DNA of 64,000 bases from Candidatus Levyibacteriota bacterium (GCA_018061075.1 JAGOUW010000001.1:167105-231104), one strand, 5' to 3'. Counted from the first letter of the stretch, positions 1,956 to 64,000 are shown. Numbers and translations: made by a program. The notes: generated from the letters alone by a model not told the origin.

Positions 1956-1957
1956 AG

Positions 1958-3748: not shown

Positions 3749-3754
3749 GCACGC

Positions 3755-3783: not shown

Positions 3784-3800
3784 GCTAATTTGCTCTTTTT

Positions 3801-5513
3801 ATGCCTTTACGTTTTTTCCAAAAAGGTCTTTCTCTTCTTTTAAAAAAGCAGACAAACATTCTTTCCGCCGCTTTAGTTTTGATGGCGACTGTAATTCTTT
3901 CCCAGGTCTTAGGGCTTTTTCGACAGCGTTTACTAGCTGGAATTTTCGGTGCATCGGATACATTAGGAGTCTATTTAGTCTCTTCTAAGCTTCCTGATTT
4001 TTTGTTCCAGCTCATAATTGCAGGCGCACTTTCATCAGCTTTTATTCCTGTTTTTGCAGATCTTCTCCATAAAGGAAGGGAAACGGAAGCAAATAAAATG
4101 GCGTCTACTTTAATGGTCATGGGTTTTGCTTTTTTTGGTTTGGTTTCAATAATTTTATTTATTTTTGCTCCAATTTTCCTTCAGCTTTTTAATTTAGGAT
4201 CTGGATATCCACCGCATCAAATGGATCTAATGACAAATCTTATGAGAATAATTATTTTTGGTCAAATAATTTTCCTCGTTGCAACTTTTTTTTCTGCAAT
4301 TCTTCAATCTCACAATCATTTTTTTATTCCAGGAATCGCAGCTGCTCTTTATAACTTTGGAATAATTATTGGAATTTTATTATTCTCAGATAGAATTGGT
4401 ATTTATGCTCCAGCAGTTGGTGTAATAATTGGAGCTCTTTGTTATGCGCTATTTCAAATACCTCTAATTAGACGAGTGCATTTTTCTTTTAGACCTACAT
4501 TTTCATTTGACACAGCCGGAGTAAAAGACGTTTTAAAACTTATCTGGCCGAGAAGTTTATCATTATTTATTTTTCAAATTGGAACATTAATAACTGTTTC
4601 TTTAATCTCTTTTCTCCCATCAGCAGGGAGAAATTATGTTATTTTAGATTTTGCGCAGACTTTAGCATTTGCCCCGATTGTTTTGTTTGGTCAGTCAATC
4701 GCCCAAGCAGCTTTTCCAGTTTTGTCCCGCGAAAAAGATAGACTGGATATTTTTAGAACCACATTCTTAACGAGTTTTAATCAAATGCTTTATTTAGTTC
4801 TTCCCGTATCGGTACTATTTATAGTGCTACGTATTCCAATTGTCAGACTTATATTCGGAGCTGCAAGATTTGACTGGGAAGCAACAGTCTTAACTGGAAG
4901 AACTTTAGCATTTTTCGCATTCGCAATTTTTGCTCAGGCTTTAATTTATTTAGTGTCTCGTGCTTTTTACGCACTTCATGATACGAAAAGCCCACTTATA
5001 GTTGGAGCAATTTCTACCGTAATAATGCTTATCTTAAGCTTCTTTTTCGTAACTTATTGGAATACTAATTTAGTAAGTCTTGCTGAATCTTATGGAAGAT
5101 TTAAAATTATACCTTTTGGCGTAGAGGGAATTGCATTAGCAACTTCTATTGGGGGACTTATAAATCTTTCTATACTTCTTTTCTTGTTAAATAGAAGAAT
5201 AAAAATTTTTAATTTAAAGGATTTTTGGGTTCCACAGTTAAAAATATTTTTATCAGTGATATTTATGGGTTTTGCATTATATATTCCAATAAAACTTTTA
5301 GACCAATTAGTTTTCGATACCACGAAAACTGTAAATTTGATTGCTCTAACCGGAATTTCAAGTATTGCTGGTCTTTCAATTTACCTATTCTTAACATGGC
5401 TTCTAAATGTAAAAGAAGCAGAAACATTTTTATATATGTTCAGGCGTTTAAGTGGATATAAAGAATTAGTAGATAAAAGTGAAAAAATTATCGACGTGAA
5501 GGCTAGTCAATAA
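3801..5513 (+). CDS. murJ: Lipid II flippase MurJ/MviN
   Basis: 570 aa polytopic membrane protein. N-terminus ...SAALVLMATVILSQVLGLFRQRLLAGIFGASDTLGVY is typical of the MurJ family. Confidence 0.85.
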   Translation: MPLRFFQKGLSLLLKKQTNILSAALVLMATVILSQVLGLFRQRLLAGIFGASDTLGVYLVSSKLPDFLFQLIIAGALSSAFIPVFADLLHKGRETEANKMASTLMVMGFAFFGLVSIILFIFAPIFLQLFNLGSGYPPHQMDLMTNLMRIIIFGQIIFLVATFFSAILQSHNHFFIPGIAAALYNFGIIIGILLFSDRIGIYAPAVGVIIGALCYALFQIPLIRRVHFSFRPTFSFDTAGVKDVLKLIWPRSLSLFIFQIGTLITVSLISFLPSAGRNYVILDFAQTLAFAPIVLFGQSIAQAAFPVLSREKDRLDIFRTTFLTSFNQMLYLVLPVSVLFIVLRIPIVRLIFGAARFDWEATVLTGRTLAFFAFAIFAQALIYLVSRAFYALHDTKSPLIVGAISTVIMLILSFFFVTYWNTNLVSLAESYGRFKIIPFGVEGIALATSIGGLINLSILLFLLNRRIKIFNLKDFWVPQLKIFLSVIFMGFALYIPIKLLDQLVFDTTKTVNLIALTGISSIAGLSIYLFLTWLLNVKEAETFLYMFRRLSGYKELVDKSEKIIDVKASQ

Positions 5514-5550
5514 TTGCTTTTAATCTTCAGGCAAATTATACTTGCAGCTT

Positions 5551-7287
5551 ATGAATTCAAATATTAGAAATTTCGCAATTATCGCTCATGTCGATCATGG
5601 TAAATCGACCCTTGCTGATAGATTTCTAGAGTTAACAAAAACTATGACTCTAAGTAAAATCGGCGAGCAGTATCTTGATACAAATCCAATTGAGAAAGCC
5701 CGTGGCATAACTATAAAACTGGCGCCAGTTAGGATGAATTATCGTTTTAACGATAAAGAATACGTATTGAACTTAATAGATACTCCGGGTCACGTAGATT
5801 TTTCTTATGAAGTTAGTCGCACTCTTGCAGCATGTGAAGGAGCAATTCTACTCGTTGACGCGACTCAGGGAGTTCAGGCGCAGACTGTCGCGCATTTTTT
5901 CGCGGCACAAAAAGAGGGCCTAACGATAATCCCTGTTATTAATAAAATAGATCTTCAGAGTTCAAAAACAGAAGAAGTTGTAAAAGAGCTTGAGGAAATT
6001 TTTGGAATAAAAAAAGAAGAGATTATTTATATTTCTGCAAAGACTGGTCAAAATGTTCCAGAACTTTTAAAAGCGGTTGTTGAAAAAATTCCACCACCCA
6101 AGGGTTTAACTGACTCTCCGCTTAGAGCTTTGATATTTGATGCTTTATATGATGAGCACAGAGGAGTTATTGTTTACGTTAGAGTTGTGGACGGTACGCT
6201 TCCAAAAAATGGAAAAATAACTTTTTTCCAAAGTGAAAAAACTACAAATGCAGGGGAAATTGGATGTTTTACTCCTCTTATGACTCCGCGAAATGAATTA
6301 ATTGCAGGGGAGATTGGATACATAGTGACTGGGATTAAAGATATTCATGAGACTCAAGTTGGAGATACGATTTGTCTAGTTTCTTCTGGAGTGGATCCGC
6401 TTCCTGGATATAAAAAACCTCAACCAATGGTTTTCTTTGGAGTTTATCCAAAGACAACTGATGAATTAGTAAATTTAAAAGAAGGTTTAAATAAATATGC
6501 GCTTAATGATACGTCTATTACGATTGCCACTGAATATTCCTCTTTCCTTGGAAATGGATTTCGCGTAGGATTTTTAGGACTACTTCACGCAGACATTGTC
6601 CGCCAAAGATTAAGGGAAGAAGAAAATGTGGATTTATTTTTGACTTCTCCTCAAGTGCTTTATGAAAAAAAAGAAAACGGAGATATGCTCGAGCCTTATA
6701 TGAACTTAACCATCTTCGTTCCTTCCAGTTATGTGGGGGGTGTGATTTCAATTTGCCAACAAAGAAAAGGAAATATGCTTGATGTTAGTTATTTTCAAAG
6801 TAGTGCAATTCTAAAATATGACATGCCGTATTCTATGCTCGTCCGTGGTTTGTCATCTGATCTAAAGTCCACAACATCTGGATATGCCAGTATAGATTAT
6901 GAAATTTCAGATTATAGACCCGCGGATTTAGTAAATATAGAAATAAGAATTAATGATGTTCCAGTAGATGTTTTAAGTGAATATGCATATAGAGATGAAG
7001 CGCCTTATATCGCTCGCGAAAAAGCAGAAAAACTAAAAGAAAAACTCCCTCGTCAGCAGTTTAGGCAAGTCATCCAAGCTATAATTGGCGGAAATATAAT
7101 TGCCCGTGAGGAAATTTCTGCTTACAAGAAAGATGTTTTGATGCATGGTAGTAAGGTAGTTGGTGGAGGAGATGTTACTCGAAAGAAAATGCTTTTGGAA
7201 AAACAGAAAAAAGGAAAAGAAAGAATGACTGAAACCGGAAAAGTCACCATCCCCCAAGAAGTCCTCTTTAGTTTAATAGAGAAATAG
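5551..7287 (+). CDS. lepA: Translation elongation factor 4 (LepA)
   Basis: IRNFAIIAHVDHGKSTLADRFLE, DTPGHVDF and NKID G-motifs, plus a LepA C-terminal region. The track starts at TTG 5542; the ATG at 5551 is preferred. Confidence 0.95.
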   Translation: MNSNIRNFAIIAHVDHGKSTLADRFLELTKTMTLSKIGEQYLDTNPIEKARGITIKLAPVRMNYRFNDKEYVLNLIDTPGHVDFSYEVSRTLAACEGAILLVDATQGVQAQTVAHFFAAQKEGLTIIPVINKIDLQSSKTEEVVKELEEIFGIKKEEIIYISAKTGQNVPELLKAVVEKIPPPKGLTDSPLRALIFDALYDEHRGVIVYVRVVDGTLPKNGKITFFQSEKTTNAGEIGCFTPLMTPRNELIAGEIGYIVTGIKDIHETQVGDTICLVSSGVDPLPGYKKPQPMVFFGVYPKTTDELVNLKEGLNKYALNDTSITIATEYSSFLGNGFRVGFLGLLHADIVRQRLREEENVDLFLTSPQVLYEKKENGDMLEPYMNLTIFVPSSYVGGVISICQQRKGNMLDVSYFQSSAILKYDMPYSMLVRGLSSDLKSTTSGYASIDYEISDYRPADLVNIEIRINDVPVDVLSEYAYRDEAPYIAREKAEKLKEKLPRQQFRQVIQAIIGGNIIAREEISAYKKDVLMHGSKVVGGGDVTRKKMLLEKQKKGKERMTETGKVTIPQEVLFSLIEK

Positions 7288-7345
7288 TTTATTTTCCCTT
7301 TCACCAGTTTTGTCTTGAAGTCAACGAATTATTGCAAAGGCTAAT

Positions 7346-8041
7346 TTAGTGCTCTACATGATCGCCGGATGGAATGTGGCCTGATGTAAAAAACCTATCA
7401 ATTATATTTCCTCGATTTGGTTTTGGATAACGATCTGGATCATATCTTGGAATAGGGGGAGGATGAATCGCTCTGGTCGGATTTAGAAATGCACTGACAA
7501 TCGCATCTTGAACTAGCTCTGGTTCTTCATGCCAAGCTTCACCTCGAATAAATCTATTGCCAACAATGACTGATCCATCAGATCCTTGAGTGTGCGCAGT
7601 TATTTCATAGCAACCTGTTTCTGTAGGTAGATCGGCTGTTTGCGTTCTAAAAAAATGTAGGATTGCAGACGTGTCATGAGTAGAATGGTTAATTCTCAAG
7701 CTAGCAAAATCTTTCTCAGTTAGACCATCTTTTATATCTTGTAGTCCTTGAATGACTCCACTTTCCTGAAGAATTTGTAATTCTTTTACTCTTTTTTCTT
7801 GCGCCTCTTTTTCCTTGATCCTTTGTGCTTCAAGTTCTCTTTGTTGTTCAGCTTGAACTGCTTGCTGTCTAGCAAGCTCTTGTGCTCTTATTGAATCTAA
7901 GTGTTCTGCCTGCGCACTGTTTATGCGTCCCCAAATCTCTGATGTTTGTCTATGTCTATTATCTTGAGCAGTAGACTCTTGAGTTCCTGTTGTGTCTTGC
8001 TTGTTTTTTCGTGGTCTAAATCTTTCTAAAAAACTTGACAT
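7346..8041 (-). CDS. Hypothetical protein (Q/E/R-rich coiled-coil N-half, globular C-half)
   Basis: 231 aa ORF with no recognisable family. It looks G+C-richer than its neighbours. TATAAT lies on the minus strand at 8056..8051, 9 nt from the ATG. Confidence 0.5.
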   Translation of the reverse strand: MSSFLERFRPRKNKQDTTGTQESTAQDNRHRQTSEIWGRINSAQAEHLDSIRAQELARQQAVQAEQQRELEAQRIKEKEAQEKRVKELQILQESGVIQGLQDIKDGLTEKDFASLRINHSTHDTSAILHFFRTQTADLPTETGCYEITAHTQGSDGSVIVGNRFIRGEAWHEEPELVQDAIVSAFLNPTRAIHPPPIPRYDPDRYPKPNRGNIIDRFFTSGHIPSGDHVEH

Positions 8042-35825: not shown

Positions 35826-36773
35826 ATGGCAGTAGAATTACCAGATAAACGGGGCGATGAATTTAGAGTTCCTCAGAGAACAGAAGCACCAGCTTATGCA
35901 GCTGCATTTACTTCTCATGCGGATTGGTTTGGATCTTTCATAGCTAATACCGATCAGAAAGTTGTACAGAGAATTACGCTTCTTGATGGGTTGCAGAGGT
36001 TTCAGGGTGTTTGGGATAAGGCAATAGATCCCGCGCAGGATTTTAGAGTTTTACTTTTAGGAGCTGGAAGAGGCGATTCGGAATTAGCAGCACTTAGTCA
36101 ATTAAAAGAATTAAGAGGTGACATGAGTAAGGTAAGTATTTTAGTAGAGGAGCCATCAGCGCAGATGCAAGGAGAATTATTAACTTCTGCTCAGGAAAGA
36201 GGTTTTGGGGCAAATATAAAAGGAATAGAAGGCAAGGAATTTGAAGATCCGACATATGTTCCTCCAGGCGTTGATTTAGCAGTAGGATTTCAGATGTGGC
36301 AATATGTAAAAGGATGGGAGGGTGTACCTGCAGTAGACAATTCTTTAGAAAAACTAAGAGCAACCGTTGCTGAGAGAGGTGGAGCTTCAGTTATTTCCGT
36401 AATGTCCCAAACAAGTGATAACTTTGCTTTAAGATCTAAGTATCTTCCAGTTATCCATGGAGAAGGAACGACAGAAACTACGGCAGAAATGATTTCAGAT
36501 CAACTTTATGCTCCCGATTTAGAAACACCCCACGATATCATAATTACCCCATCAACTTTAAATGTTAGCTCCGTGTTTCCAGATGGTCGTTTTGATCCAA
36601 CTCCAGAAGGTGCAAATATACTATCTTTTATATTAAGAGCTGACTGGAATGTTTTACCAGACGGTCTTAAAGTGCAAGTGGCGCAAGATTTAGAATATCT
36701 TGTAAGAAGAAATGATGGATATAGACTATCTTTTAGAGATGCTTACGTCTGGCTTCCTGGTATAGACAATTAA
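35826..36773 (+). CDS. Class I SAM-dependent methyltransferase-like protein (histamine-N-methyltransferase-like layout)
   Basis: FRVLLLGAGRGDSELAALSQL (motif I-like), then VEEPSAQM. The overall order resembles the HNMT family. It looks G+C-richer than its neighbours. Confidence 0.4.
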   Translation: MAVELPDKRGDEFRVPQRTEAPAYAAAFTSHADWFGSFIANTDQKVVQRITLLDGLQRFQGVWDKAIDPAQDFRVLLLGAGRGDSELAALSQLKELRGDMSKVSILVEEPSAQMQGELLTSAQERGFGANIKGIEGKEFEDPTYVPPGVDLAVGFQMWQYVKGWEGVPAVDNSLEKLRATVAERGGASVISVMSQTSDNFALRSKYLPVIHGEGTTETTAEMISDQLYAPDLETPHDIIITPSTLNVSSVFPDGRFDPTPEGANILSFILRADWNVLPDGLKVQVAQDLEYLVRRNDGYRLSFRDAYVWLPGIDN

Positions 36774-36811: not shown

Positions 36812-37150
36812 ATGCCCGGATTTTATCTATCCATTCCTTTTTTGTTTCTCAAATTTTGGTATCTTGAGGCCCCCCTCAGGCTGATCAAATACTTCATGTC
36901 TGTGAATCATGCAGTTTTACAGATTCTTTCTCTTCCTCTCATGCTTAGGACTTTTTTCAAACCTCTTAAGAATGAATACAGAAAAGGATTGGTAGTGTTC
37001 TCTATTGGAATGGGAATTTTTATAAAAACTACGCTGATATTTTTTGATTTAGTTTTCTTCGGTACAGTTTTATTTCTTGAAGTTACATTTTTAGCGTTTT
37101 TTATCTGGTGGCCCTTAATTACATTTTTAATTTTATTTATTAAATTATGA
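36812..37150 (+). CDS. Small polytopic membrane protein, translationally coupled to the Clp-like ATPase
   Basis: 112 aa, 3 TM helices. ATGA stop/start overlap at 37147..37150. Confidence 0.45.
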   Translation: MPGFYLSIPFLFLKFWYLEAPLRLIKYFMSVNHAVLQILSLPLMLRTFFKPLKNEYRKGLVVFSIGMGIFIKTTLIFFDLVFFGTVLFLEVTFLAFFIWWPLITFLILFIKL

Positions 37151-39501
37151 ACGGAAGAATAAGTATATCTTTAATTTACGATTCAATTGGTTCTGTCCTA
37201 ATTAGATTTTTTGCAATAAACGGAGCTTTAATTCTTATTGTTTATGAGATTGTTTTAGGAAACTTTCCAAGAATTCCATTGTTCCTTTTATCATTAATTA
37301 CTATTATTCATATTTTTATTAGATATGAGATTGAGAATATTTTGCCTATGAAAAAAGTCACTGGAAATTTAACGGACACATTAGACTGTTTTACAAAAGA
37401 AGCTCTTATGGCTGTTCTACTTAAAAATAATTCACCTTCCATTATTAATTATTTAAAAAATAGACTTCAAATTAAATTTTATCTAGAAAAAGTAGCGATA
37501 AATTCTAAAGATTTAAAGATTGTAGATTTTCCAAAGCACGATTTATATGCGAAAGCATTAGAAATCGCAAAGTCTCAAAATGGAAATTATGTTACTTCCG
37601 TTGATCTTTTTACGGCCTTTCTTCTTCTGACAGAAAATCAAACAAAATTACTTTTTTCAAACAGATTAAAAGAAACAGATATTTTAAATATAAATCACTG
37701 GACTAAAGTAACGTTTGATGAAGAAAATATTAAGCCTAAAAAAGCAAGGTTTGTGGGAATTGGAATTGGGGAAACGCTAGTGTGGGGTTGGACTCCTGAA
37801 ACAAGAAATTATACTAAAGACTTAACTTTTTCAAGCGTTAGAAAAAAAGGATTTATAGAAGGAAGGGAAACAGAATATAAAGAAATGCTTGAGGCAATGC
37901 AGAGAAAAGAAAATAATAATGTACTTCTGGTTGGAGATATTGGAACGGGAAAAAGTAATTTAGTGGATAATTTTATTTTTGATAGTTATGAAGCAAATTT
38001 ATCCAAAAAATTAAATCACAGAAGATTTTTAGAAGTTGCAATTGGTCCGCTTGTTGCTGGAACTGCAAATAGAGAAGAATTAGAAACAAGACTCCAGGCG
38101 ATAATTGAAGAGGTAAAGCATTCAGGAAATGTAATTTTATATGTACCAGAGTTCCAAAATTTAATTGGTTCATCTTCTTATGAAATCGATTTATCTGGCG
38201 CCATTCTTCCATATCTTAGAGATGGAAGAATGCCTATAGTCGCGACTATGACAGAGCCTGAGTATAAAAAATATTTTGAAAATAATGCAATTAGAGAGGT
38301 TTTTGAAATTATAAAACTTAGTGAGCCGAATGAAGAAACGGCATTAAAAATGCTTTTTCAAAAAGCTGAAGAAATTGAAAATGATACTAAGACCCAACTT
38401 AGCTATAGGGCTGTTCTTTCAGCTGTAAAATACGCAGACAAATTTGATGTAAATGCAGTGCTTCCTGGAACTGCCGTTGAGCTTTTAACAGAAGCTGCAA
38501 ATTCTGTTTATCTGGATAAAAGAAAAGAAAAAATAGTTCTTGAGGAAGATATTTTAGCTAAAGTTGAAACAAAAAGTCATATACCGGTGGGTCAGCCAAA
38601 ATCTGAAGAAAAACTTCTACTCCTAAATCTTGAAAATGAAATGCATAAGTTTGTTATCGGTCAAGATGAAGCAATTCGTTCAATTTCTGAAGCAATAAGA
38701 AGGATTAGGGCAGGTCTGTCTCGCGAAAAACCAATTTCATTTTTATTCTTAGGTCCTACTGGAGTTGGAAAAACAGAAGCTGCGAGAACACTTGCAAGAA
38801 TTTATTTTGGGGGTGTTGCAAATATAATCAGGGTGGATATGAGTGAATATGGAAATCCCGACTCTGTTTCAAAAATGCTTGAATCTGATTCTGGAAGCTT
38901 CTTAAATCAAATTGAAACTCATCCTTTCTCGTTAGTTTTATTAGACGAATTTGAAAAAGCCAATGAGAAAATCTTAAATTTATTTCTTCAGGTTTTTGAG
39001 GATGGAAGAATGACTGATAATTCGGGTAAAACTATTTCTTTTACTAATACTATTATTATATCTACCAGTAACGCCGGTTCTGAGTTTATCCGCGAAAATC
39101 TAGCGGGCAATAGAGACATTTCAAATAATAGTTTGTTAGATCATTTGCAGAGAAGTGGAATATTTACACCAGAATTATTAAATAGATTTGATGATATTGT
39201 CGTCTTTAATCCCCTTAATCAGTCTCAAGTTTCACAGATCGCAAAATTACTTTTAGCGCAATTATCCGGAAGACTTTCTCAGCAAGATATAACTTTAAGT
39301 TTTGATCCTCAGGCTGTTGAGTTTATTGCACGCGGCGGGTTTAATGAGGAATTTGGTGCACGTCCCCTTACCCGTTTTATTCAGGATAAGGTAGAAGATG
39401 TTATGGCTAAAAAGATGCTTTCTGGAGAAGTTGTGAGGGGAGATAAGATAAATGTTACATTAGATCAGAGTTCAAATCTTACCTTTACTAAAGCAACTTA
39501 G
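37147..39501 (+). CDS. Membrane-anchored two-ring Clp/Hsp100-family AAA+ ATPase (ClpA/ClpC-like)
   Basis: Two N-terminal TM helices and a Clp_N-like repeat. NBD1 has GDIGTGKSNLV but an atypical Walker B, ILYVPEF. NBD2 has LGPTGVGKTEAARTLA, LVLLDEFEKA and GARPLTRFIQ. There is no long M-domain. Confidence 0.8.
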   Translation: MNGRISISLIYDSIGSVLIRFFAINGALILIVYEIVLGNFPRIPLFLLSLITIIHIFIRYEIENILPMKKVTGNLTDTLDCFTKEALMAVLLKNNSPSIINYLKNRLQIKFYLEKVAINSKDLKIVDFPKHDLYAKALEIAKSQNGNYVTSVDLFTAFLLLTENQTKLLFSNRLKETDILNINHWTKVTFDEENIKPKKARFVGIGIGETLVWGWTPETRNYTKDLTFSSVRKKGFIEGRETEYKEMLEAMQRKENNNVLLVGDIGTGKSNLVDNFIFDSYEANLSKKLNHRRFLEVAIGPLVAGTANREELETRLQAIIEEVKHSGNVILYVPEFQNLIGSSSYEIDLSGAILPYLRDGRMPIVATMTEPEYKKYFENNAIREVFEIIKLSEPNEETALKMLFQKAEEIENDTKTQLSYRAVLSAVKYADKFDVNAVLPGTAVELLTEAANSVYLDKRKEKIVLEEDILAKVETKSHIPVGQPKSEEKLLLLNLENEMHKFVIGQDEAIRSISEAIRRIRAGLSREKPISFLFLGPTGVGKTEAARTLARIYFGGVANIIRVDMSEYGNPDSVSKMLESDSGSFLNQIETHPFSLVLLDEFEKANEKILNLFLQVFEDGRMTDNSGKTISFTNTIIISTSNAGSEFIRENLAGNRDISNNSLLDHLQRSGIFTPELLNRFDDIVVFNPLNQSQVSQIAKLLLAQLSGRLSQQDITLSFDPQAVEFIARGGFNEEFGARPLTRFIQDKVEDVMAKKMLSGEVVRGDKINVTLDQSSNLTFTKAT

Positions 39502-40807: not shown

Positions 40808-42238
40808 ATGGACGCTAAAAAAACTAACCAAGAATATCCTCCAGTCGTAGCCGTTTTAGGTCATGTTGACCATGGTAAGACTACTCTCCTAGACACTATA
40901 AGGAAAACTTCAATTGCGAGCCGCGAGCATGGCGGAATCACCCAGAAAATTGGAGCTTCAAGTGTCGAGATTGAGCATGAAGGAAAAAAGAGATGGATTA
41001 CTTTTATAGATACTCCTGGACACGAAGCTTTTGCTAAGATGCGAGGCCGCGGAGCACAAGCTGCAGATATTGGCTTGCTCATAGTGTCTTCGGTTGATGG
41101 AGTTATGCCTCAGACAAAAGAAAGCATAGGGCTTCTTAAAGCTTCAGGAGTCCCATATATAGTAGTACTCACTAAATCAGATGATCCTCAGAAAAACCCA
41201 GAAAAAGCAAAAAGAGATCTTATGAATGAAGAGATTCTCTTCGAGGGATTAGGTGGAGACGTGCCTGTAATTGAGGTTTCTTCAAAAACTGGAGCAAATA
41301 TTAAAGAATTACTGGATCTAATCTTACTTGTTAATGATCTTCATCCAAAATCAACTGAAATTTCTGAAAATGGACCGCTTAAAGCAATTGTAATTGAATC
41401 AAAACAGGATCCAAAAGCAGGTCCTAAGGCTACAGTTGTTGTAAAAAACGGTACGATTTCAGTTAGAGATGATGTTACGACTGGTGAAGTAAGCGGTAGA
41501 GTTAGAAATTTAATATTAGATTCTGGAAAAACCACACAGTCTGCAAGAGTTGGGGACGCAGTTGAGGTTTTAGGTTTTGAAACGGCTCCAAAGGTAGGGA
41601 ATGTTATATATAAAGGCTCAGAAATAAAGCTTTTAGAAGAGTCAGAAAAAGAAATTAGAAAAAAGAACAACGAGGACTATATTTCCTTAATTTTAGTAGC
41701 TGACACTTTAGGTTCTCTTGAGGCAATCGTAGCCTCACTTCCTGAGAAAATAAACATTATTTCTAAAAAAACTGGAGACATAACTACAGCTGATGTATTG
41801 CTTGCGAAATCAATTGGAGCATTAGTCTTAGGTTTTAATATAAAAATTAAGCCTGATGTAGCGCGTTTAGCCTCAACAGAAAAGGTTTTGGTTAGAAGTT
41901 ATGGCATTATTTATGAAATGCTTGATGAAATTAAAGATGTAGTAGAAGGAAAAGCATTGTCTCTTCTTGAAGAGGTTTATGGGACAGCAAAGGTTTTAGC
42001 GAGTTTTCCATACGAAAAGCAGATTGTTATGGGTATAAAGGTTCTTGAAGGCCGCGTTGCTAAGGGAGATAAGGTAAGAATTGAACGAGGAGACGAAATT
42101 ATCGGAGAGGGTTATATTAATTCAGTGAGAATTGGAAAAGATCAAACCTCCAAAGTCGAAGCAGGCCTGGAAGCGGGTATAATAGTAGGCCCTGCGCTTG
42201 ACTTTACTATAGGCGATATGATAATATGCCATAACTAA
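40808..42238 (+). CDS. infB: Translation initiation factor IF-2 (minimal form, G domain onward)
   Basis: PPVVAVLGHVDHGKTTLLD within the first 35 aa, DTPGHEAF and TKSD. 476 aa in total. Confidence 0.92.
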   Translation: MDAKKTNQEYPPVVAVLGHVDHGKTTLLDTIRKTSIASREHGGITQKIGASSVEIEHEGKKRWITFIDTPGHEAFAKMRGRGAQAADIGLLIVSSVDGVMPQTKESIGLLKASGVPYIVVLTKSDDPQKNPEKAKRDLMNEEILFEGLGGDVPVIEVSSKTGANIKELLDLILLVNDLHPKSTEISENGPLKAIVIESKQDPKAGPKATVVVKNGTISVRDDVTTGEVSGRVRNLILDSGKTTQSARVGDAVEVLGFETAPKVGNVIYKGSEIKLLEESEKEIRKKNNEDYISLILVADTLGSLEAIVASLPEKINIISKKTGDITTADVLLAKSIGALVLGFNIKIKPDVARLASTEKVLVRSYGIIYEMLDEIKDVVEGKALSLLEEVYGTAKVLASFPYEKQIVMGIKVLEGRVAKGDKVRIERGDEIIGEGYINSVRIGKDQTSKVEAGLEAGIIVGPALDFTIGDMIICHN

Positions 42239-59162: not shown

Positions 59163-59466
59163 CCACGGAAGATTTTCAGATGGAATACTTTTAGGAATGC
59201 TTATTGGAGGCGCTGCTGTTTTTTTACTCGGCACAAAAAAGGGAAATAAGATTTTAAAAACTATCACTGAGGATGGTTTAGCCGGACTTTCTGAGGTTGC
59301 GAAGGATCTTGAAAATGATGCAAGAAGAGAGACAAAGGTTCAGCTTAAAAAAGTAGAAGAGAAAATCGAAGACCTAGGAGATTCGATTGTTATTGAGACT
59401 GTAGGAAATGGTCAAGAATCTAAAACTTCTTCCAAGAGATTCTTCCGCAAAACCGCAAAAAATTAG
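59155..59466 (+). CDS. YtxH-like protein
   Basis: GILLGMLIGGAAVFLLGTKKGNKILK then a helical region. AGGAGG lies upstream of ATG 59155, which is preferred to the track start at 59134. Confidence 0.55.
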   Translation: MGNHGRFSDGILLGMLIGGAAVFLLGTKKGNKILKTITEDGLAGLSEVAKDLENDARRETKVQLKKVEEKIEDLGDSIVIETVGNGQESKTSSKRFFRKTAKN

Positions 59467-60419
59467 AGGCCGTAGGTAGAAATATTTTCTTCGTGTTCAT
59501 CAAGAGTTTGCGCATACCTGTTAACACCATTTTTATCAGTTATGTAAAAAAGATAAGGTGTTTCATCAGGATTTACTGCAGCTTGAAGGCTAAGTAGTCC
59601 TGGATTTGAGATTGGAGCTGGCGGAAGACCTGCTCTTCCGTAAGTATTGTAAAGTGAGGAAGACTGTTTGTCTTCATTTGTAATATTATTTGGCCACCAT
59701 TTTTTCGAAACCGAATCATAGCCTTTTATATATTGAAGCGTTGCGTCAATGTCTAGCTTCATTCCTATATCTAGTCTGTTGTGAATTACGCTTGAAACAA
59801 TGGGCCTATCTTCTGCGTGTCTTGCTTCGCGCTCTATTAAAGAAGCGAGAGTTACAATTTCGTTTTCAGTTAGATTTACTCTTGAAGTGTCTAAGGTTGC
59901 ATATTTAGAATCGAAATTATCTCTCATTATTTTTACAACTGCGTCTACATCTGCATCTTTTGGTAATAAATAAGTATCAGGGAATAAATATCCTTCATTT
60001 TTTTCTAAAACTCCCTCCCAGGAAGCGTCATATTTAGGCATAAGTTTTTCGAGAGTATCTGCGATTTCTCCCACGCGCTGACCTTCTGGAATTGTTATCC
60101 AAATATCTTCTGTTCCTACAGTTAATGATTGCGCTACAGCGCGCGCTGTCATAGATGGGTTTAGTCTAAAGCTTCCGGCCTGAATCTTACTATCAAGTCC
60201 TGTCTGTTTGGTAAGAAGAAAGAAAGCAGTTGGATCTTTAATAAGTCCTTGATCTTTAAGGTTTCTTGCAATTGATCTAACGCCCTCGCCCTGTTCAACT
60301 ATGAATATTTTAGGGGTATTATCATTTGAGTTAGCTGGGGAAGTTCCTCTTAGCCACCAGCCAAGAGAAAGAATAATAAGTACTGCGAGGATAGCAACCG
60401 TTACGTAAATTCTCTTCAT
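59463..60419 (-). CDS. mltG: Endolytic murein transglycosylase MltG (YceG-like)
   Basis: N-terminal TM, a LysM-like segment, EGYLFPDTYLLP, and ASLIEREA. Confidence 0.85.
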   Translation of the reverse strand: MKRIYVTVAILAVLIILSLGWWLRGTSPANSNDNTPKIFIVEQGEGVRSIARNLKDQGLIKDPTAFFLLTKQTGLDSKIQAGSFRLNPSMTARAVAQSLTVGTEDIWITIPEGQRVGEIADTLEKLMPKYDASWEGVLEKNEGYLFPDTYLLPKDADVDAVVKIMRDNFDSKYATLDTSRVNLTENEIVTLASLIEREARHAEDRPIVSSVIHNRLDIGMKLDIDATLQYIKGYDSVSKKWWPNNITNEDKQSSSLYNTYGRAGLPPAPISNPGLLSLQAAVNPDETPYLFYITDKNGVNRYAQTLDEHEENISTYGL

Positions 60420-61690
60420 TTAAACTTTACTAAAGGGAAGTTTTCTAATGACTCTTTTCCTTCCTTAAGATTATACACAGAATCGGAGTAAAAAGTACAG
60501 ATTGGCTCGTTCTTGCGAGCTTTCTCTCCAATTTTTTTATTCAAATAAATGCCAGCTGATTTCATGTCAGGGGCGCCAAGAATTCGAGTTATCATAGTAA
60601 GATTTTTAATGTTAAAACCTGCAATCTCGCAATTTCTTGGAGCAACATACTCAAATTTATGTTTTCCAGGCTTTAAATCTTTACTTGTTACTTTTGCATC
60701 TCCGCCCTGCGCCTTTATGATTTCTTTAAGCTTTGCTAGTGCAAGTCCTGAAAGAAGAATATGAAGCGCCCAGTTAAATCCATTCTTGTGTTCCTTGATT
60801 ATTTTATTTCTAAAAGCCGCAGGACTACTTGCAAGACAAAGTTCCAACAAACTTCCTGCGAGATTTATACTTCTTGCTTCTAAATCCGGAGCTCTTTTTG
60901 GATCTTGCTCTAAGACTAGTAGCGCTTCTTTTGTCTCAAGAACTGGACCGATGCCTCGCCCTGCTGGTTCATCTGTTTTGTGAATTAAAACTTCGATTTT
61001 TACCCCGAATTTTTTTGCGAGCTGTTCAAATTTTCTTTTAAGAAGTTTTGCATCATTTACATTATGAACTTTTACAGACTCACCATATGGAATATCAATT
61101 ACCACATGATTACTTCCAAATGCTACTTTTTTAGCCATGATTGAGATAAGAATCTTATCAAATGATTCAAAAAGAAGGACCTCTTCAACCTTTATAATTA
61201 CGTCATCAGCTGGTGCTATGTTAAAACTTCCACCCCAAACAATGCATCCATTAGTTTTCTTAACGGTCGCATATATTTTTTGTTTGGATAAATTTACCGG
61301 TGCGAGGATTTCGAAATCATCAGCGGTTCCGCCCGGAGTTGTGATAGCCCTAGAAGAGCTTTTAGGTATCTTAAAACCCGCTGCCGCAACGATGGGCACC
61401 ACTATCATGGTCGTTCTAGTTCCTGGGACTCCTCCTATAGAATGTTTGTCTGCGATGATTCCTGAGAAATTTAATTTTTCTCCAGTTTCAATCATGGCTT
61501 TAGTCAGATAATAAATTTCGTCGTCTGAAAATCCTTTTGAGAATCCAGAAGCTGCGAAATAAGTCGTTAAAACGTCTCCAAGTTTTTCTTTGGAGATTTG
61601 ATCCATGATGGCAAAAATTTCTTTATAGTTTAGTTCTCTGCCAACAAGCTTTTTTCTTATGGCGGCTATAGCCTGTTCTTTTTCATCCAT
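60416..61690 (-). CDS. deoA: Thymidine-phosphorylase-family enzyme, AMP-phosphorylase-like
   Basis: ADKHSIGGVPGTRTTMIVVPIVAAAG...SSRAITTPGGTAD. The HSIGGVPG variant resembles archaeal AMP phosphorylases rather than the HSTGGVGD of classical TP. Confidence 0.75.
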   Translation of the reverse strand: MDEKEQAIAAIRKKLVGRELNYKEIFAIMDQISKEKLGDVLTTYFAASGFSKGFSDDEIYYLTKAMIETGEKLNFSGIIADKHSIGGVPGTRTTMIVVPIVAAAGFKIPKSSSRAITTPGGTADDFEILAPVNLSKQKIYATVKKTNGCIVWGGSFNIAPADDVIIKVEEVLLFESFDKILISIMAKKVAFGSNHVVIDIPYGESVKVHNVNDAKLLKRKFEQLAKKFGVKIEVLIHKTDEPAGRGIGPVLETKEALLVLEQDPKRAPDLEARSINLAGSLLELCLASSPAAFRNKIIKEHKNGFNWALHILLSGLALAKLKEIIKAQGGDAKVTSKDLKPGKHKFEYVAPRNCEIAGFNIKNLTMITRILGAPDMKSAGIYLNKKIGEKARKNEPICTFYSDSVYNLKEGKESLENFPLVKFK

Positions 61691-61824
61691 GTTTGACTTG
61701 GTTAATCATGAGTTTTACTAAATTTTTAAGAAATTTTATTGTTGCAAAAAAAGTGTTATTTATGACCTTATAGATTGTCGGCCAAATGTTATATAAAATT
61801 CTTTGAATTCCAACTCTTTCCATA

Positions 61825-62541
61825 TTATTTTACAATTCTAGCTTTAATAATAAGCCTTTTCCAAATTGTACCAGGCGGGGTACAGGTAATAATAGTTAAA
61901 AAACTATCTGTAAAATTTTGAGCTAGAACTGAAGTGTCAGTTGGTTCGACTACAGTGATACTAATTATTTTATATTTGTGTTTTGCGCCATTTACTTCTG
62001 TATTTATCTCATCTCCAACTTCTAGTTTGTAGGCATTTGCAAGAACAGTTTTATAATTGTTCGGATCATACAATTGCGGTAGCGTCGAGTGACCAAAGAT
62101 TACAGAATTTCCGTCTTTTCCAGGTAGGGTGTCTGAATTAAACTGAACCATATGGCGAGTTAGATCCGTATCTTTATTTGAAACTTCAGCGTCAGCTATT
62201 CCTATTTTAGGAAAGGAAATTTTATAAGTCGCTACATTATTTGATTTTTGTGCTTCAGCTCCTGGATACCAGTTGTAAGCATTTGTATAATCTCTGTTCA
62301 TGGATCTTGTCGCGTTCTCGATAAGCGTTCCTAAATTTGTAGGGCTAATAACTGTTTGGTTTGGGATTGGAGCTTGGATTTTTTGAGACGCAAATGCCGG
62401 CGCAAAATAAATTTGCCATGAAAGGAGAGGGAAAAAAGTGTAAGCGAATAGTATAGCGCCAAAAATTAATACTCCAATGCTCCCAATTCTTACGAGTAGT
62501 TTATAATTTCTTCTTTTTCCCTTGTAGTAAATTTTACCCAT
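61825..62541 (-). CDS. Sortase (transpeptidase)
   Basis: N-terminal TM. His in NSVIFGHS, Cys in LTIITCTP (TLxTC-like), and a downstream Arg (WKRLIIKA). Overlaps the upstream ORF by 8 nt. Confidence 0.85.
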   Translation of the reverse strand: MGKIYYKGKRRNYKLLVRIGSIGVLIFGAILFAYTFFPLLSWQIYFAPAFASQKIQAPIPNQTVISPTNLGTLIENATRSMNRDYTNAYNWYPGAEAQKSNNVATYKISFPKIGIADAEVSNKDTDLTRHMVQFNSDTLPGKDGNSVIFGHSTLPQLYDPNNYKTVLANAYKLEVGDEINTEVNGAKHKYKIISITVVEPTDTSVLAQNFTDSFLTIITCTPPGTIWKRLIIKARIVK

Positions 62542-64000
62542 TTTTTTCTGTCATTATTTTTATCTTTCCCGAGGAGAACGGTATGCGTTCCGGGAGGAAG
62601 GGGATAGGAGGGAACAATTTTATATCAACTTTATTTATTTCATTTATTTCGTTTAACTTCTTGATAGCGTCTTTTGCGGATTTTCCTTTTATTTCATTTG
62701 CGATTTCTTTTGAATCAATTTTTGGAACTAAATTAGCTTTTATTGTGAGTTTTCCGGTAGCATTATTTCCTTTTGCTTTTAGATTAGCAGCGCTTGCATC
62801 AACGCTATCTTTATCTACAACTAAATCGCTTCCAGTTTCTAACTTATCCTTTGCGAAATTTAAAATGTCAGTTTCTTTATAAGAAACACCCCTGTAGCTA
62901 ATTGTTGCGGTTAGGCTAATTTCCGTTGCTTCATCATCTATATCTTTACTGAAAGTTTTTTTATCAAACTCGACTGAGATAAAGTTTGGTAATACTACGG
63001 ATCCATCTTCTGCTTCTTTTTGAATTTGTTCCTTGGCTTCTGTTTCTAAATCTTTTTGGAGTTCTGCTGCTAATTTATCCTGATCTTTTTTAGCAACAAC
63101 CTTTACTTCTTTTTTTGTTCCTCCTGAAAAAGCTTTATCATTTTTTGCAGCAACGGATGAGCTTCCGTCAACTGTAAATTTAGTATTACTTGGTAGGTTT
63201 TGACTAGTTCCAAATTTTTCTGCAGTAACTGTGACATCTGCTTTTCCAGGTTCAGTTCCCGAGAAAATATCTCCTGATGCTGAAGCGATGGTGACAGCTT
63301 TATCAGTTACAAACTTAAGATCATTTGGAGAAGTAATTACAGTGCCTGTAGGAATCGTAACTCCAGAAGTATTACTGTTAAATAAAGTTACGGTTCCTTT
63401 AGCTTTATCTCCAACCTCCTTTTTACCAGTTGTTGCAATTGACTTCTTTCCGTCTGCTGTGACAGTTATAAATTGAGCGTTAATGATGTCATCATCTGCG
63501 TTTGTCGCTTCAGTTTCTGAAAAAGTTACATTTACTTCTTCATCTTCTTCCTTTGCATCAATTCCCAGAGTTACGGTTACACTTCTGCCAAAAAGATAAA
63601 CATAAAGAAATAATAAGATTATCGTCAGAGGGATTAATCCAATCGCGAGTTTTTTGCGAGATCCATTTGCGCCTTTTAAAATTTTTCCCGGGTGTACTGT
63701 TTTCATAAAACCCATAATTCCTGTCATTATAAATGCGCCGTTAACGGGAAACGGTTTTTTCTCCGCACTATTTATTTTTAGTTCTTCAGGAATTTCCCTG
63801 AATTGGTCAGCTGGAGAAATGTTATCCATAACTGCAGTTTTTGGAATTTCTTTGTCGGTGGGTTTATTAGTGCTAAATTCTTCTTCGAGTGTTTCAGCCT
63901 TAGTGTTTGTTTGGTTTTCTGGAATTTCCTCAGAGGATTTAACATCTCCTCCCACAAACCCAAATTCTGATGCGGCTTCAGCAAGAGTTCTGTCAGTTTC
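62534..64000 (-). CDS. Large membrane-anchored extracytoplasmic protein, N-terminus outside the window
   Basis: The frame stays open to the window edge (…ETDRTLAEAASEFGFVGGDVK…), so the GTG at 63955 is probably not the true start. There is a single TM (LIPLTIILLFLYVYLF) and K/T/D-rich beta-type domains. Co-transcribed with the sortase. Confidence 0.5.
   Translation of the reverse strand, partial: ETDRTLAEAASEFGFVGGDVKSSEEIPENQTNTKAETLEEEFSTNKPTDKEIPKTAVMDNISPADQFREIPEELKINSAEKKPFPVNGAFIMTGIMGFMKTVHPGKILKGANGSRKKLAIGLIPLTIILLFLYVYLFGRSVTVTLGIDAKEEDEEVNVTFSETEATNADDDIINAQFITVTADGKKSIATTGKKEVGDKAKGTVTLFNSNTSGVTIPTGTVITSPNDLKFVTDKAVTIASASGDIFSGTEPGKADVTVTAEKFGTSQNLPSNTKFTVDGSSSVAAKNDKAFSGGTKKEVKVVAKKDQDKLAAELQKDLETEAKEQIQKEAEDGSVVLPNFISVEFDKKTFSKDIDDEATEISLTATISYRGVSYKETDILNFAKDKLETGSDLVVDKDSVDASAANLKAKGNNATGKLTIKANLVPKIDSKEIANEIKGKSAKDAIKKLNEINEINKVDIKLFPPIPFLPERIPFSSGKIKIMTEKNG

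Follow-up and report, generated by a model that had tools for sequence, protein, structure and literature searches.

Clp/Hsp100 ATPases are soluble threading machines. FtsH is held in the membrane by two N-terminal helices and has a cytoplasmic ATPase. In NSF (D2) and in Pex1/Pex6 (D1) one ring binds nucleotide without hydrolysis and serves assembly. Processive unfolding by Clp/Hsp100 proteins depends critically on aromatic pore loops (PMC5425593). Torsins, which are of Clp/Hsp100 descent, have no aromatic pore loops, associate with the membrane through a hydrophobic N-terminus and rely on transmembrane cofactors (PMC5425593). Bcs1 is reported to move its cargo without classical threading (PMC7018516; PMC10567702), and to be a transmembrane AAA protein that transports folded cargo (PMC10567702). 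Here we describe a gene pair from Candidatus Levyibacteriota that shares features with several of these systems. It lies in a 64,000-nucleotide stretch of DNA (the window).

A conserved gene pair of the Patescibacteria

The pair consists of a gene for a small membrane protein, here called the partner, and a gene for a Clp-type ATPase, laid out as follows.

36812..37150, + strand: partner gene, 112-aa membrane protein (ORF, dN/dS, relatives, AlphaFold)
37147..39501, + strand: gene for a membrane-anchored, two-ring ATPase of the Clp/Hsp100 type, 784 aa (Pfam, NCBIfam, PDB search, AlphaFold, Foldseek)
37147..37150, + strand: ATGA start/stop overlap of the partner and Clp genes (sequence)

The first-pass annotation had placed an ATGA overlap between the Clp gene and a 112-aa ORF, and the coordinates are correct: the partner stop TGA occupies 37148-37150 and the Clp ATG 37147-37149. 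The Clp gene is translationally coupled to the small membrane protein gene. An identical 4-nt overlap is found in loci L087 and L006, and other loci have gaps or overlaps of a few nucleotides. The small upstream ORF had been expected to stay beside Clp homologs, and this was indeed the case: it lies directly 5' of the Clp gene in all 12 testable loci, which come from Levybacteria, other Microgenomates, Parcubacteria and Saccharibacteria and have different neighbourhoods, and it is kept next to homologs down to ~30% identity. One metagenome contig carries a natural partner-ATPase fusion (P0120). The gene context is that of housekeeping genes. We conclude that the pair is a real, conserved two-gene unit of CPR/Patescibacteria.

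Pfam and NCBIfam place the Clp protein in Clp/Hsp100. Its best relatives in a PDB sequence search were ClpB and ClpC (E ~1e-98), and its AlphaFold model (pLDDT 83.8) matched the cores of ClpC1, ClpA and ClpB in Foldseek with a TM score of ~0.83. The NCBIfam scores were 394.5 for ClpA (TIGR02639; equivalog cut-off 993) and 406 for ClpB (TIGR03346; cut-off 1232). A ClpB/Hsp104-type disaggregase was rejected, with a score below the equivalog cut-off and no M-domain. The anti-phage ClpB-like ATPase of Dodola (DolB) was rejected as well: it scored 117 bits, which reflects generic D2 homology, against ~330 bits for ClpB, and the lack of any match between the PADLOC models and the partner, together with the housekeeping gene context, counts against a Dodola-type defence function. 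Some Clp homologs have precomputed matches to the SMAX1 NBD family PF23569.

A family profile run against 1.84 billion proteins recovered 145 representative clusters. The window protein has the hairpin, the helical N-domain, the linker of GWTPET type, the pores without tyrosine and the intact D2, and its partner carries the W-W-Y...T-x-F-x-P motif immediately 5' of the Clp gene. We found no curated family or publication describing such a pair of anchored Clp protein and partner. The pair is a distinct family of Patescibacteria, and it appears confined to CPR-type genomes.

Membrane anchor, linker and partner protein

The following parts of the two proteins lie in or near the membrane or link it to the ATPase rings.

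37186..37332, + strand: Clp residues 14-62, hydrophobic helical hairpin, membrane anchor (hydropathy, AlphaFold, family, dN/dS)
37378..37716, + strand: Clp residues 78-190, N-domain made up entirely of helices, perhaps a strongly diverged Clp_N repeat (AlphaFold helices)
37720..37815, + strand: Clp residues 192-223, Gly/Trp-rich linker EE..FxGxGIGExLVxGWTPETxxYT (family conservation)
36833..36925, + strand: partner residues 8-38, long N-terminal helix with an F/W-W-Y/F...P motif (conservation, AlphaFold, hydrophobicity)
36950..36985, + strand: partner residues 47-58, invariant basic loop TFFKPLKNEYRK, predicted cytoplasmic (conservation, AlphaFold)
36986..37141, + strand: partner residues 59-110, a pair of hydrophobic segments of membrane grade, 59-82 and 86-110 (Kyte-Doolittle, Eisenberg, AlphaFold)

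The topology of the Clp anchor and of the partner was derived from hydropathy and AlphaFold. N-terminal membrane helices had been claimed for the 784-aa Clp protein, and hydropathy, modelled helices and conservation agree on them. Kyte-Doolittle peaks reach 2.2-2.3, AlphaFold places helices at residues 14-36 and 42-62 (pLDDT 85-92), and almost every family representative has a hydrophobic N-terminus, which all canonical ClpC controls lack. The true start is not an internal methionine, since codons 1-67 are under purifying selection (dN/dS 0.084 at dS ~1.2) and Met68, the sole nearby internal start, is Val in the compared relative. The hydrophobic hairpin at the N-terminus is a genuine part of the translated protein. 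For the Clp_N-like repeat postulated behind it, hhalign gave a weak match to the Clp_N profile over one repeat (residues ~131-180; P = 0.0013, 18% probability), and neither Pfam, searched for Clp_N in the protein, nor a comparison of a family profile with the PDB gave a match. The linker that follows is family-specific and has no counterpart in the ClpB/ClpC alignment. Its residues E192, G204, G214, W215, T216 and E218 are invariant, and residues 203-214 have a pLDDT below 50 despite their conservation.

Comparison of the partner with its L087 ortholog gave a dN/dS of 0.11, which indicates strong purifying selection. Its ~1,471 relatives are all ~108-130 aa long and named 'hypothetical proteins', and no Pfam or NCBIfam family was found for them. 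Its AlphaFold model has a pLDDT of 93 and found no match among PDB structures. W16, P21 and N32 of the N-terminal helix motif are invariant. This helix is partly hydrophobic and partly amphipathic, with a mean hydrophobicity of 0.56 over residues 2-19 and a hydrophobic moment of 0.42 over residues 20-38. The basic loop is non-helical in the model; T47, P51, K53, E55, Y56 and R57 are invariant in 60 sequences, and T47, F49 and P51 are retained even in Saccharibacteria, so that the window partner and the Saccharibacteria versions have invariant residues in common. The positive-inside rule and fusion P0120 suggest that this loop is cytoplasmic. The two following segments reach Kyte-Doolittle values of up to 2.66 and Eisenberg mean hydrophobicities of 0.72 and 0.91. 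AlphaFold draws residues 58-110 as a single continuous helix; we infer a hairpin for 59-110 on topological grounds, as the fusion requires a cytoplasmic C-terminus of the partner. Of the three transmembrane helices assigned earlier to the partner, two are clearly of membrane grade and the third (8-38) is unproven, being only partly hydrophobic or amphipathic. Within the hydrophobic region K72, E90 and P101 are conserved, K72 and E90 invariantly so.

Invariant charges inside membrane segments would suit a membrane conduit for which the ATPase serves as collar. Twelve anchor helices together with partner helices might build a pore in line with the AAA+ channel, pass folded proteins, as Bcs1 does with Rieske, or non-protein cargo, and serve uptake or export in the host-dependent CPR cells. 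Membrane helices come from every subunit, with two or more additional ones from the partner, the pore loops (see below) differ from those of threading machines, the family appears CPR-restricted, and Bcs1 is a precedent for folded cargo (PMC10567702). However, the argument is an architectural one, and no shared cargo or channel gene was found beside the pair, whose neighbourhoods vary by lineage. We consider a conduit improbable.

Two ATPase rings without pore tyrosines

The catalytic and pore motifs were located by alignment to ClpB and ClpC.

37855..38556, + strand: Clp residues 237-470, D1 AAA+ module, predicted non-catalytic (ClpB/ClpC D1 alignment, motif decay)
37933..37956, + strand: D1 Walker A GDIGTGKS, 263-270 (alignment)
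38056..38082, + strand: D1 pore-loop position AGTANREEL, 304-312; AG(A/T)KYRGEF in ClpB/ClpC (alignment)
38134..38151, + strand: D1 Walker B ILYVPE, 330-335, Pro for Asp (alignment)
38296..38301, + strand: D1 arginine-finger positions E384 and V385; canonical ERRFQ (alignment)
38557..39501, + strand: Clp residues 471-784, D2 AAA+ module and D2-small, predicted active ATPase (Pfam, ClpB alignment)
38752..38775, + strand: D2 Walker A GPTGVGKT, 536-543 (K542 and T543 invariant in 120/120 and 65/65)
38872..38904, + strand: D2 pore-loop remnant KMLESDSGSFL, 576-586, canonical GAPPGYVGYEEGG minus 8 residues and without Tyr (ClpB/ClpC alignment)
38935..38958, + strand: D2 Walker B VLLDEFEK, 597-604 (D600 and E601 invariant; motif LLDEFEKA)
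39079..39162, + strand: Clp residues 645-672, the ClpP-docking region of ClpA/ClpC, here SEFIRENLAGNRDISNNSLLDHLQRSGI (no [LIVM]-G-[FLM] tripeptide)
39184..39186, + strand: D2 arginine finger R680 (invariant in 120/120 and 65/65)

The D1 ring combines a Walker A motif with decayed catalytic positions, as the first-pass annotation had seen for GDIGTGKS and the Asp-to-Pro exchange in Walker B. The column of K269 holds 112 K and 7 R among 120 homologs, and the Ser/Thr that follows it is replaced by Glu/Asp in 71 of them. ILYVPEF aligns residue for residue with 'ILFIDEL' of ClpB, so the exchange is real, and Pro occupies the Asp column in 116/120 close homologs. The exchange to Pro holds for the Microgenomates-type clade and fails as a family-wide trait: in the wider family the column contains D (21), P (20), E (11), Q (5) and others, the variants include PE, QN, EN, SN, DN and DD, and Saccharibacteria relatives keep DE. 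The two finger columns are without a conserved Arg, their commonest residues being S/D/Q/G/E/N and L/V/F/Q/S/K. D1 is thus predicted from its motifs to be non-catalytic, yet it is under strong purifying selection, with a dN/dS (0.048) as low as that of D2 (0.051). An M-domain is missing, as had been stated: query residues 456 to 462 span ClpC 404 to 469 and ClpB 438 to 520 without insertion, and the AlphaFold model of the Clp protein contains no coiled coil.

The description of the second ring as canonical is confirmed at the catalytic level. Pfam assigns AAA_2 (PF07724) to residues 529-684 (E = 5e-37) and ClpB_D2-small (PF10431) to 690-770 (E = 4e-24), and D2 scores 250 bits against ClpB D2. 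Walker A, Walker B, sensor 1 N642, R680 and sensor 2 R739 are invariant in 120/120 close homologs and 65/65 representatives (185 sequences). R680 as a trans-acting finger would imply an oligomeric ring. This invariance also bears on whether the protein is a decaying Clp paralog, a passive scaffold for which ATP turnover is no longer important. The varied decay of D1 across the family is what relaxed catalytic constraint would produce. However, next to the invariant D2 residues, dN/dS is 0.05-0.08 in every domain of the Clp protein at dS ~1, and the family persists in strongly reduced genomes of several CPR lineages. Decay is accordingly very unlikely.

The pores of both rings differ from those of threading Clp proteins. 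In D1 the Tyr column contains N/D/S/G/T/Q in 120/120 close homologs and N/S/T/G/D/K/E/R or a gap in 65 representatives, Tyr occurring in none of them. In D2 the query clade has an 8-residue deletion in the loop, and a clade at 45% identity reads GAPPGEGDER-G, with GYVG replaced by GEGDER. Among the 65 representatives, Tyr is outside the eight commonest residues of the GYVG Tyr column; one family member (P0356) has GYLP at or near this column. F585 of the window protein aligns with the canonical Leu of 'GGQLT' and not with the loop tip. D2 is therefore predicted to be an active ATPase without the canonical threading apparatus. The loss of pore tyrosines in both rings, together with that of the D1 arginine fingers and the ClpP tripeptide beside invariant D2 catalytic residues, is the main feature of the protein and had been missed in the first-pass annotation.

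Unfolding or extraction in parallel to FtsH, as suggested there, is weakened by the absence of the pore tyrosines, the D1 fingers, the ClpP tripeptide and a peptidase. With the usual gripping apparatus missing, an FtsH-like mechanism is unlikely. An unconventional extractor or translocase could still be imagined, in which a hexamer under the membrane pulls membrane or secreted proteins through non-aromatic pore residues and the small protein serves as an adaptor or as a receptor for substrates, parallel to FtsH and Msp1 but without a built-in protease. The geometry would suit extraction, since the N-face of D1 should face the membrane, the orientation that an extractor would need. The two-ring fold has been preserved, D2 constitutes a complete ATPase, and the acidic GAPPGEGDER loop, conserved in part of the family, speaks for a functional pore surface. 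This loop suggests that the pore still contacts something and thereby argues against a mechanism without threading. Moreover, the locus has hrcA-grpE-dnaK-dnaJ in its vicinity in Levybacteria, and dnaJ in L086, but the window contains no CIRCE heat-shock operator. Further points against extraction are that practically every member has lost the tyrosines critical for processive unfolding (PMC5425593) in both rings, that D1 is predicted to be unable to hydrolyse ATP, and that neither a ClpP loop nor a peptidase domain is available for the disposal of extracted proteins. In the query clade the D2 loop has been deleted, so that orthologs with the same partner differ in having the loop at all. Taken together, we regard an extractor as a doubtful but serious alternative.

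The ClpP-docking loop, an IGF/LGF-type tripeptide that the first-pass annotation had proposed to look for, was found in 0/164 family members and in 41/44 canonical ClpC-type genes, and the Pfam matches of the Clp protein include no peptidase domain. In agreement with the earlier reading, no clpP was found among the ORFs scanned, which are part of the window's ORFs. An ordinary ClpA/ClpC-type unfoldase that feeds a ClpP encoded elsewhere in the genome would account for the source annotation 'ATP-dependent Clp protease ATP-binding subunit' and for a fold whose best structural matches are ClpC and ClpA. The motif comparison contradicts it, the pore-loop tyrosines are missing, the NCBIfam scores lie far under the equivalog cut-offs, and canonical Clp genes coexist with the anchored Clp in L001 and L058; this explanation is hardly tenable. 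Since the docking loop is absent, automatic naming as 'Clp protease ATP-binding subunit ClpA/ClpC' misleads.

A putative non-threading membrane machine

Compared with ClpC, ClpA and ClpB, the window protein shares two AAA+ modules, D2-small and the D2 catalytic motifs, and with ClpA also the absence of an M-domain. It differs in its membrane hairpin and dedicated partner, in having no Clp_N by standard models, and in lacking the D1 Walker B Asp, the D1 arginine fingers, both pore tyrosines and the ClpP tripeptide. Like FtsH, it is a bacterial AAA+ protein on two N-terminal membrane helices. FtsH, however, combines one AAA module that bears an aromatic pore loop with a fused M41 zinc peptidase, and the window protein shows none of these. 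In Msp1/ATAD1 and Bcs1 an N-terminal anchor likewise holds a ring ATPase at the membrane surface, but these are single rings from other AAA clades, and Msp1 uses aromatic pore loops. One inactive ring, as predicted for D1, is also known from NSF, Pex1/Pex6 and Hsp100-like proteins of the SMAX1/D53 type, all of them soluble.

In design the pair resembles Torsin with LAP1/LULL1 of the eukaryotic ER and nuclear envelope more than it resembles FtsH, Torsin being a Clp-related, membrane-associated ATPase without aromatic pore loops that has a transmembrane partner. Torsin, however, has one AAA+ module, resides in the ER lumen and receives its arginine finger from an AAA-like cofactor, whereas the window protein has two rings with an invariant R680 and its partner is a helical membrane protein of ~110 aa without an AAA-like fold. 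Given the D2 finger and a partner that lacks any AAA-like domain, the parallel is one of function only, an analogy.

We give about an even chance to the pair being a Patescibacteria-specific two-protein membrane machine that works by a D2-driven conformational switch in the manner of Torsin and its cofactor, and not in that of FtsH or ClpAP. The ATPase hexamer would sit with the N-terminal face of D1 against the cytoplasmic side of the membrane. D1 may serve as an assembly or regulatory ring that binds nucleotide without hydrolysing it, and D2 would be the sole motor. D1, the N-domain and the invariant GWTPET linker could then pass an ATP-driven switch on to the anchor helices and the partner, where it would remodel, assemble, disassemble or gate a membrane-embedded complex. 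Since neither ring has canonical gripping loops, hydrolysis most likely powers something other than processive threading, a reading that is taken from missing motifs, and the role is probably other than classical protein unfolding. More tentatively, the anchored Hsp100 machine may be a non-threading, bacterial functional counterpart of Torsin and Bcs1 that gates or remodels a membrane complex or conveys cargo. It is possibly part of the host-dependent lifestyle of CPR bacteria.

Saccharibacteria, which belong to the CPR, are now genetically tractable. If the proposed mechanism is true, the Hsp100 repertoire would gain a non-threading, membrane-coupled mode that has so far been known mainly from eukaryotic Torsins, and the family would offer a simpler bacterial system for the action of ATPases on membranes. 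Two conserved 'dark matter' genes of the CPR would thereby receive a candidate role.

The gene pair and its products

The first-pass annotation had proposed a membrane-anchored Clp/Hsp100 ATPase whose start codon overlaps the stop codon of a small membrane protein. Both open reading frames were located in the window:

36812..37150 (+), 112-aa membrane protein (the partner)
37147..39501 (+), 784-aa Clp/Hsp100-type ATPase (the anchored Clp), with a first (D1) and a second (D2) ATPase ring

The window sequence contains the described ATGA overlap, in which the TGA stop of the partner overlaps the ATG of the anchored Clp. Pfam assigned AAA_2 to residues 529-684 and ClpB_D2-small to residues 690-770 of the anchored Clp, and D1 was matched by generic P-loop models only. 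The closest relatives of solved structure were ClpB and ClpC (E ~1e-98), and the AlphaFold model (mean pLDDT 83.8, pTM 0.73) superposed on the AAA cores of ClpC1, ClpA and ClpB with TM ~0.83. NCBIfam equivalog cut-offs were missed widely (ClpB 406 vs 1232, ClpA 394 vs 993). Residue-level alignment paired the Walker B segment of D1, 'vilyvPEf', with 'VILFIDEL' of ClpB, so that the atypical motif with Asp replaced by Pro was confirmed. D2 carries the expected canonical motifs GPTGVGKT and LLDEFEKA, and the alignment agreed with the earlier reading in that the stretch bearing the ClpC/ClpB M-domain is missing.

The two N-terminal transmembrane helices had been described with the caveat that the true start might be an internal Met. 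Kyte-Doolittle analysis marked residues 13-62 as hydrophobic, with the same two peaks in the family-averaged profile, and AlphaFold placed confident helices at 14-36 and 42-62. Selection was estimated against the ortholog on the 785-kb contig L087 (~86-96% protein identity; dS ~0.9-1.2). For the anchored Clp, dN/dS was 0.084 in codons 1-67, 0.076 in codons 68-236, 0.048 in D1 and 0.051 in D2; for the partner it was 0.11. The sole nearby alternative start, Met68, is Val in L087, and together with the dN/dS values this rules out an internal start at that position. The N-terminal helices are thus real and do not result from a mis-called start. Since dN/dS is low in all segments and Met68 is replaced, both reading frames are, judged from codon conservation, translated as annotated.

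In the partner, Kyte-Doolittle analysis marked residues 59-112. The AlphaFold model (pLDDT 93) has one helix over residues 8-38 and a single long one over 58-110, with a basic, non-helical loop (47-57) between them. On the Eisenberg scale, two stretches reach membrane grade, 59-82 (0.72) and 86-110 (0.91); residues 2-19 score in between (0.56) and residues 20-38 are amphipathic. Hydropathy therefore secures two of the three transmembrane segments claimed before (59-82 and 86-110); the third, in the N-terminal helix, is uncertain and a count of three is not established. Residues W16, S40, T47, F49, P51, S64, G68 and P101 are invariant in the alignment, from the window protein through the Saccharibacteria versions. 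Searches with 33 + 7 + 4 partner sequences, divergent ones included, gave nothing credible in Pfam/NCBIfam, and databases name the partner a 'hypothetical protein'. No PADLOC family matched it, and a defence-system reading of the pair was rejected on the PADLOC result. Foldseek found no structural neighbour of the partner model in the PDB (best E = 4.9).

Linkage of the pair and its genomic neighbourhood

Database searches recovered full-length homologs of the anchored Clp (96-44% identity, all ~780-825 aa) from Levybacteria, Woesebacteria and other Patescibacteria, together with many partner homologs of ~110 aa, and many pairs lie on one contig. Direct inspection of several differing neighbourhoods revealed that the two genes overlap by up to 4 nt or are separated by up to 3 nt. 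The first-pass annotation had made its claim hinge on conservation of the small upstream ORF, and this ORF was found at 12/12 loci with an intact upstream region, the window included. This count leaves aside L012, which ends at a contig edge, and L057, which is frameshifted or masked. Canonical ClpC loci had no partner-like ORF in 5/5 cases.

Loci with the partner gene directly upstream of an anchored Clp gene
L001: 47%-identity ortholog; same nusA-infB context
L003-L005: 47% identity; neighbours differ
L087: close relative
L013: Patescibacteria
L014, L023: Saccharibacteria, ~30% identity
L018: Parcubacteria
L006: Saccharibacteria; ATGA overlap again
L058: labelled Gammaproteobacteria
L030, L065: labelled Gammaproteobacteria

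Four contigs with family members and partners (L012, L030, L058 and L065; GC 0.48-0.54) are titled 'uncultured Gammaproteobacteria bacterium'. Either these labels are wrong or the family extends past Patescibacteria.

One homolog, P0120 (821 aa; L086 2950..5415; JGI 3300027835 contig Ga0209515_10024984), is a natural fusion of a whole partner with the Clp body. The partner is joined just after the position of the second anchor helix and replaces the hairpin of the Clp itself; the C-terminus of the partner must therefore be cytoplasmic. P0120 is known from one 5.4-kb metagenome contig and may be an assembly artefact, and as a single case the fusion is weak evidence that partner and Clp associate physically. 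A dnaJ gene lies ~1 kb upstream of the P0120 gene.

The window has the look of a Levybacteria-type CPR genome (~35% GC). The pair is flanked by pyrimidine genes on one side and nusA-infB on the other, with dnaK and dnaJ ~6-11 kb upstream of it, and the order in L087 is hrcA-grpE-dnaK-glmS-dnaJ-...-partner-Clp-nusA-infB. Because neighbourhoods differ among other lineages, the sole conserved linkage is that of the two genes with each other. In L001, a Y1 (IS200-type) transposase (6746..7177) lies between the anchored Clp and nusA and breaks the Clp-nusA-infB order. No HrcA/CIRCE operator was found in the window with up to 3 mismatches, and a promoter/terminator scan around the operon was uninformative (11 promoter-like sites vs 13.7 expected from shuffles). 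The first-pass annotation had reported no clpP in the window, and those of its ORFs that were scanned with Pfam included no ClpP, FtsH or canonical Clp. Further features of the window are:

2272..2874 (-), PilO-like pilus assembly protein, in an unannotated ORF cluster (861..3413) at the left edge
35826..36773 (+), 315-aa ORF immediately preceding the partner gene
40808..42238 (+), IF-2 of 476 aa
46824..47885 (+), 353-aa protein with AAA and Lon lid domains
62534..63955 (-), baseplate-J-like protein (PF04865), with neighbour ORFs at 59463..62541, at the right edge

The PilO-like cluster probably belongs to a type IV pilus locus. The 315-aa ORF matched nothing in Pfam, NCBIfam, PADLOC or the PDB. 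It is missing from the otherwise syntenic L087, in which the partner gene comes next after a DHO dehydrogenase gene; the ORF has a GC of 0.40 vs ~0.32-0.35 in its neighbours, with similar GC3 (0.23), and may be a lineage-specific insertion. The IF-2 begins at the GTPase domain and has no typical long bacterial N-terminal region; a length of 476-496 aa is also found in L087 and L001. The 353-aa protein lacks the Lon protease domain, is conserved in L087 (20027 onward) and represents a second unusual 'protease-less' AAA+ protein of the region. GC skew changes sign in the baseplate-J-like region, which may belong to a prophage or to a contractile injection system.

Pore loops, catalytic motifs and a proposed mechanism

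Motifs were aligned in 120 homologs and then in 65 whole-family representatives against three canonical ClpC genes. A search of genome contigs with a full-length-alignment profile had returned mostly ordinary ClpC genes through generic motifs (LLDEFEK, LGPTGVGKT); these then served as the canonical controls, and about a dozen matches belonged to the family.

Motifs of canonical ClpC genes and of the anchored Clp family
D1 pore loop: canonical AGTKYRGEF; family Tyr column N/D/S/G/T/Q in 120/120 close homologs, Tyr in 0/65 representatives
D1 arginine fingers: canonical ALERRFQ; family, Arg conserved in neither column
D1 Walker B: canonical FIDELH; family D 21, P 20, E 11, Q 5, others, next residue N 26, E 16, D 14
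D2 pore loop: canonical GAPPGYVGYEEGG; family Tyr column gap (29), E, G, Q, M, N, others, Tyr not among the commonest

In the query's subfamily, the Microgenomates-type relatives closest to the window protein, the D1 Walker B Asp column is Pro in 116/120 sequences, and an acidic residue (Glu or Asp) stands at the Walker A Ser/Thr position in 71/120. In Saccharibacteria members both Walker motifs of D1 remain canonical (A, GKT; B, FIDEA or FLDEA), yet the two pore tyrosines are gone and anchor and partner are present. Because these members combine such features with canonical D1 Walker motifs, the ancestral signature of the family is, on the aligned sequences, anchor, partner and Tyr-less pores, and by the same comparison the Asp-to-Pro change is a later, clade-specific step of D1 decay. 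The change reported before is hence real in the window protein and does not hold for the Saccharibacteria, which keep DE.

The D2 loop differs between clades. A 45%-identity clade has a conserved acidic GAPPGEGDER-G (pattern G(A/S)PPG(E/Q)G(D/N/E)(E/D)(R/K)G), and the query clade has an 8-residue deletion (window 38872..38904) with the remnant 'ESDS--------GSF'. An acidic loop in one clade and a deletion in the other, with the same partner kept, fit together under none of the explanations considered. F585 was rejected as a substitute pore aromatic, as its position corresponds to the Leu of canonical 'GGQLT' and not to the loop tip.

In D2, the K/T of Walker A, the D/E of Walker B, N642 (sensor 1), R680 (arginine finger) and R739 (sensor 2) are invariant across all 185 sequences. 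This invariance and the low dN/dS contradict a passive relic, which we consider very improbable. Since the D2 arginine finger acts in trans, its conservation points to a ring-shaped oligomer, which is presumably hexameric like every Hsp100 protein. D1 keeps the Walker A lysine, has lost the Walker B Asp and the arginine fingers, and often lacks the Mg-binding Ser/Thr. The loss of catalytic residues with the lysine kept, under constraint equal to that of D2 (dN/dS 0.048), suggests that D1 probably binds nucleotide without hydrolysing it and serves in assembly or regulation, as known from other two-ring AAA proteins; D2 would be the motor. The ClpP-docking [LIVM]-G-[FLM] tripeptide occurred in 0/164 family members vs 41/44 canonical genes, which contradicts a ClpP-coupled unfoldase to the point that we give this reading hardly any credence.

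Aromatic pore loops are required for processive unfolding in Clp/Hsp100 proteins (PMC5425593). As they are missing in both rings, and as the D2 loop can be deleted without losing the gene pair, processive threading by the anchored Clp is unlikely. The N-terminal anchor would place the D1 face at the membrane. Such a geometry, like the conserved acidic D2 loop of one clade, favours an unconventional extractor or translocase, which we nevertheless regard as doubtful, and a conduit of the Bcs1 type seems less probable still. We give a non-threading mechanism about an even chance of being correct. Its most economical form would be an ATP-driven conformational switch that acts on the partner and on whichever membrane complex the partner contacts. 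The same logic has been proposed for Torsins: they are Clp-derived, have no aromatic pore loops, are membrane-associated and need transmembrane cofactors (PMC5425593).

Distinctness of the family

A family-specific profile was built from the N-terminal 236 residues (hairpin, helical domain and linker). Among 1.84 billion proteins it matched only 145 representative clusters (50% identity), 56 of them at E <= 1e-30, with full-length matches of 778-909 aa. Against PDB sequences it gave noise only (best hit a centriole protein, E = 0.13). Comparison by hhalign with a Clp_N profile from 45 canonical genes reached 18% probability (P = 0.0013) over one repeat, so that the 'Clp_N-like repeat' of the first-pass annotation is plausible but unproven. 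The linker between N-domain and D1 (FxGxGIGExLVxGWTPET; window 37720..37815, residues 192-223; GIGETLVWGWTPET) has no counterpart in ClpB or ClpC. Its residues G204, G214, W215, T216 and E218 are among the few invariant ones of the protein, yet AlphaFold models it at pLDDT < 50. Such a combination is typical of segments that gain order only on entering a complex, and the linker is a candidate motif for an interaction or for a membrane interface.

At least two genomes encode canonical Clp proteins alongside the pair, and consequently the anchored Clp is not simply the ClpB or ClpC of its lineage. L001 also encodes a 1217-aa Clp with Clp_N, and L058 a textbook ClpB (Clp_N, M-domain, GYIG Tyr pore loop) at 2117..4756 (-), divergent to the pair at 4902..7947 (+), with which it may share a regulatory region.

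Source databases name the anchored Clp ClpA, ClpC or 'AAA-2 domain protein', and we found neither a curated family nor a publication that covers an Hsp100 with a membrane anchor, Tyr-less pores and a membrane partner of its own. Literature searches returned no paper on a membrane-anchored Hsp100 in CPR or Saccharibacteria, and the Southlakia Tn-seq paper makes no mention of Clp/AAA proteins in its main text. The anchored Clp is clearly an Hsp100 by descent and so not categorically new; it lacks the functional features by which ClpA/ClpC, ClpB and FtsH are defined. We are highly confident that the family and its anatomy are correctly identified. This family, whose function we infer, would surprise AAA+ specialists, and it occurs in Saccharibacteria, which are newly tractable.
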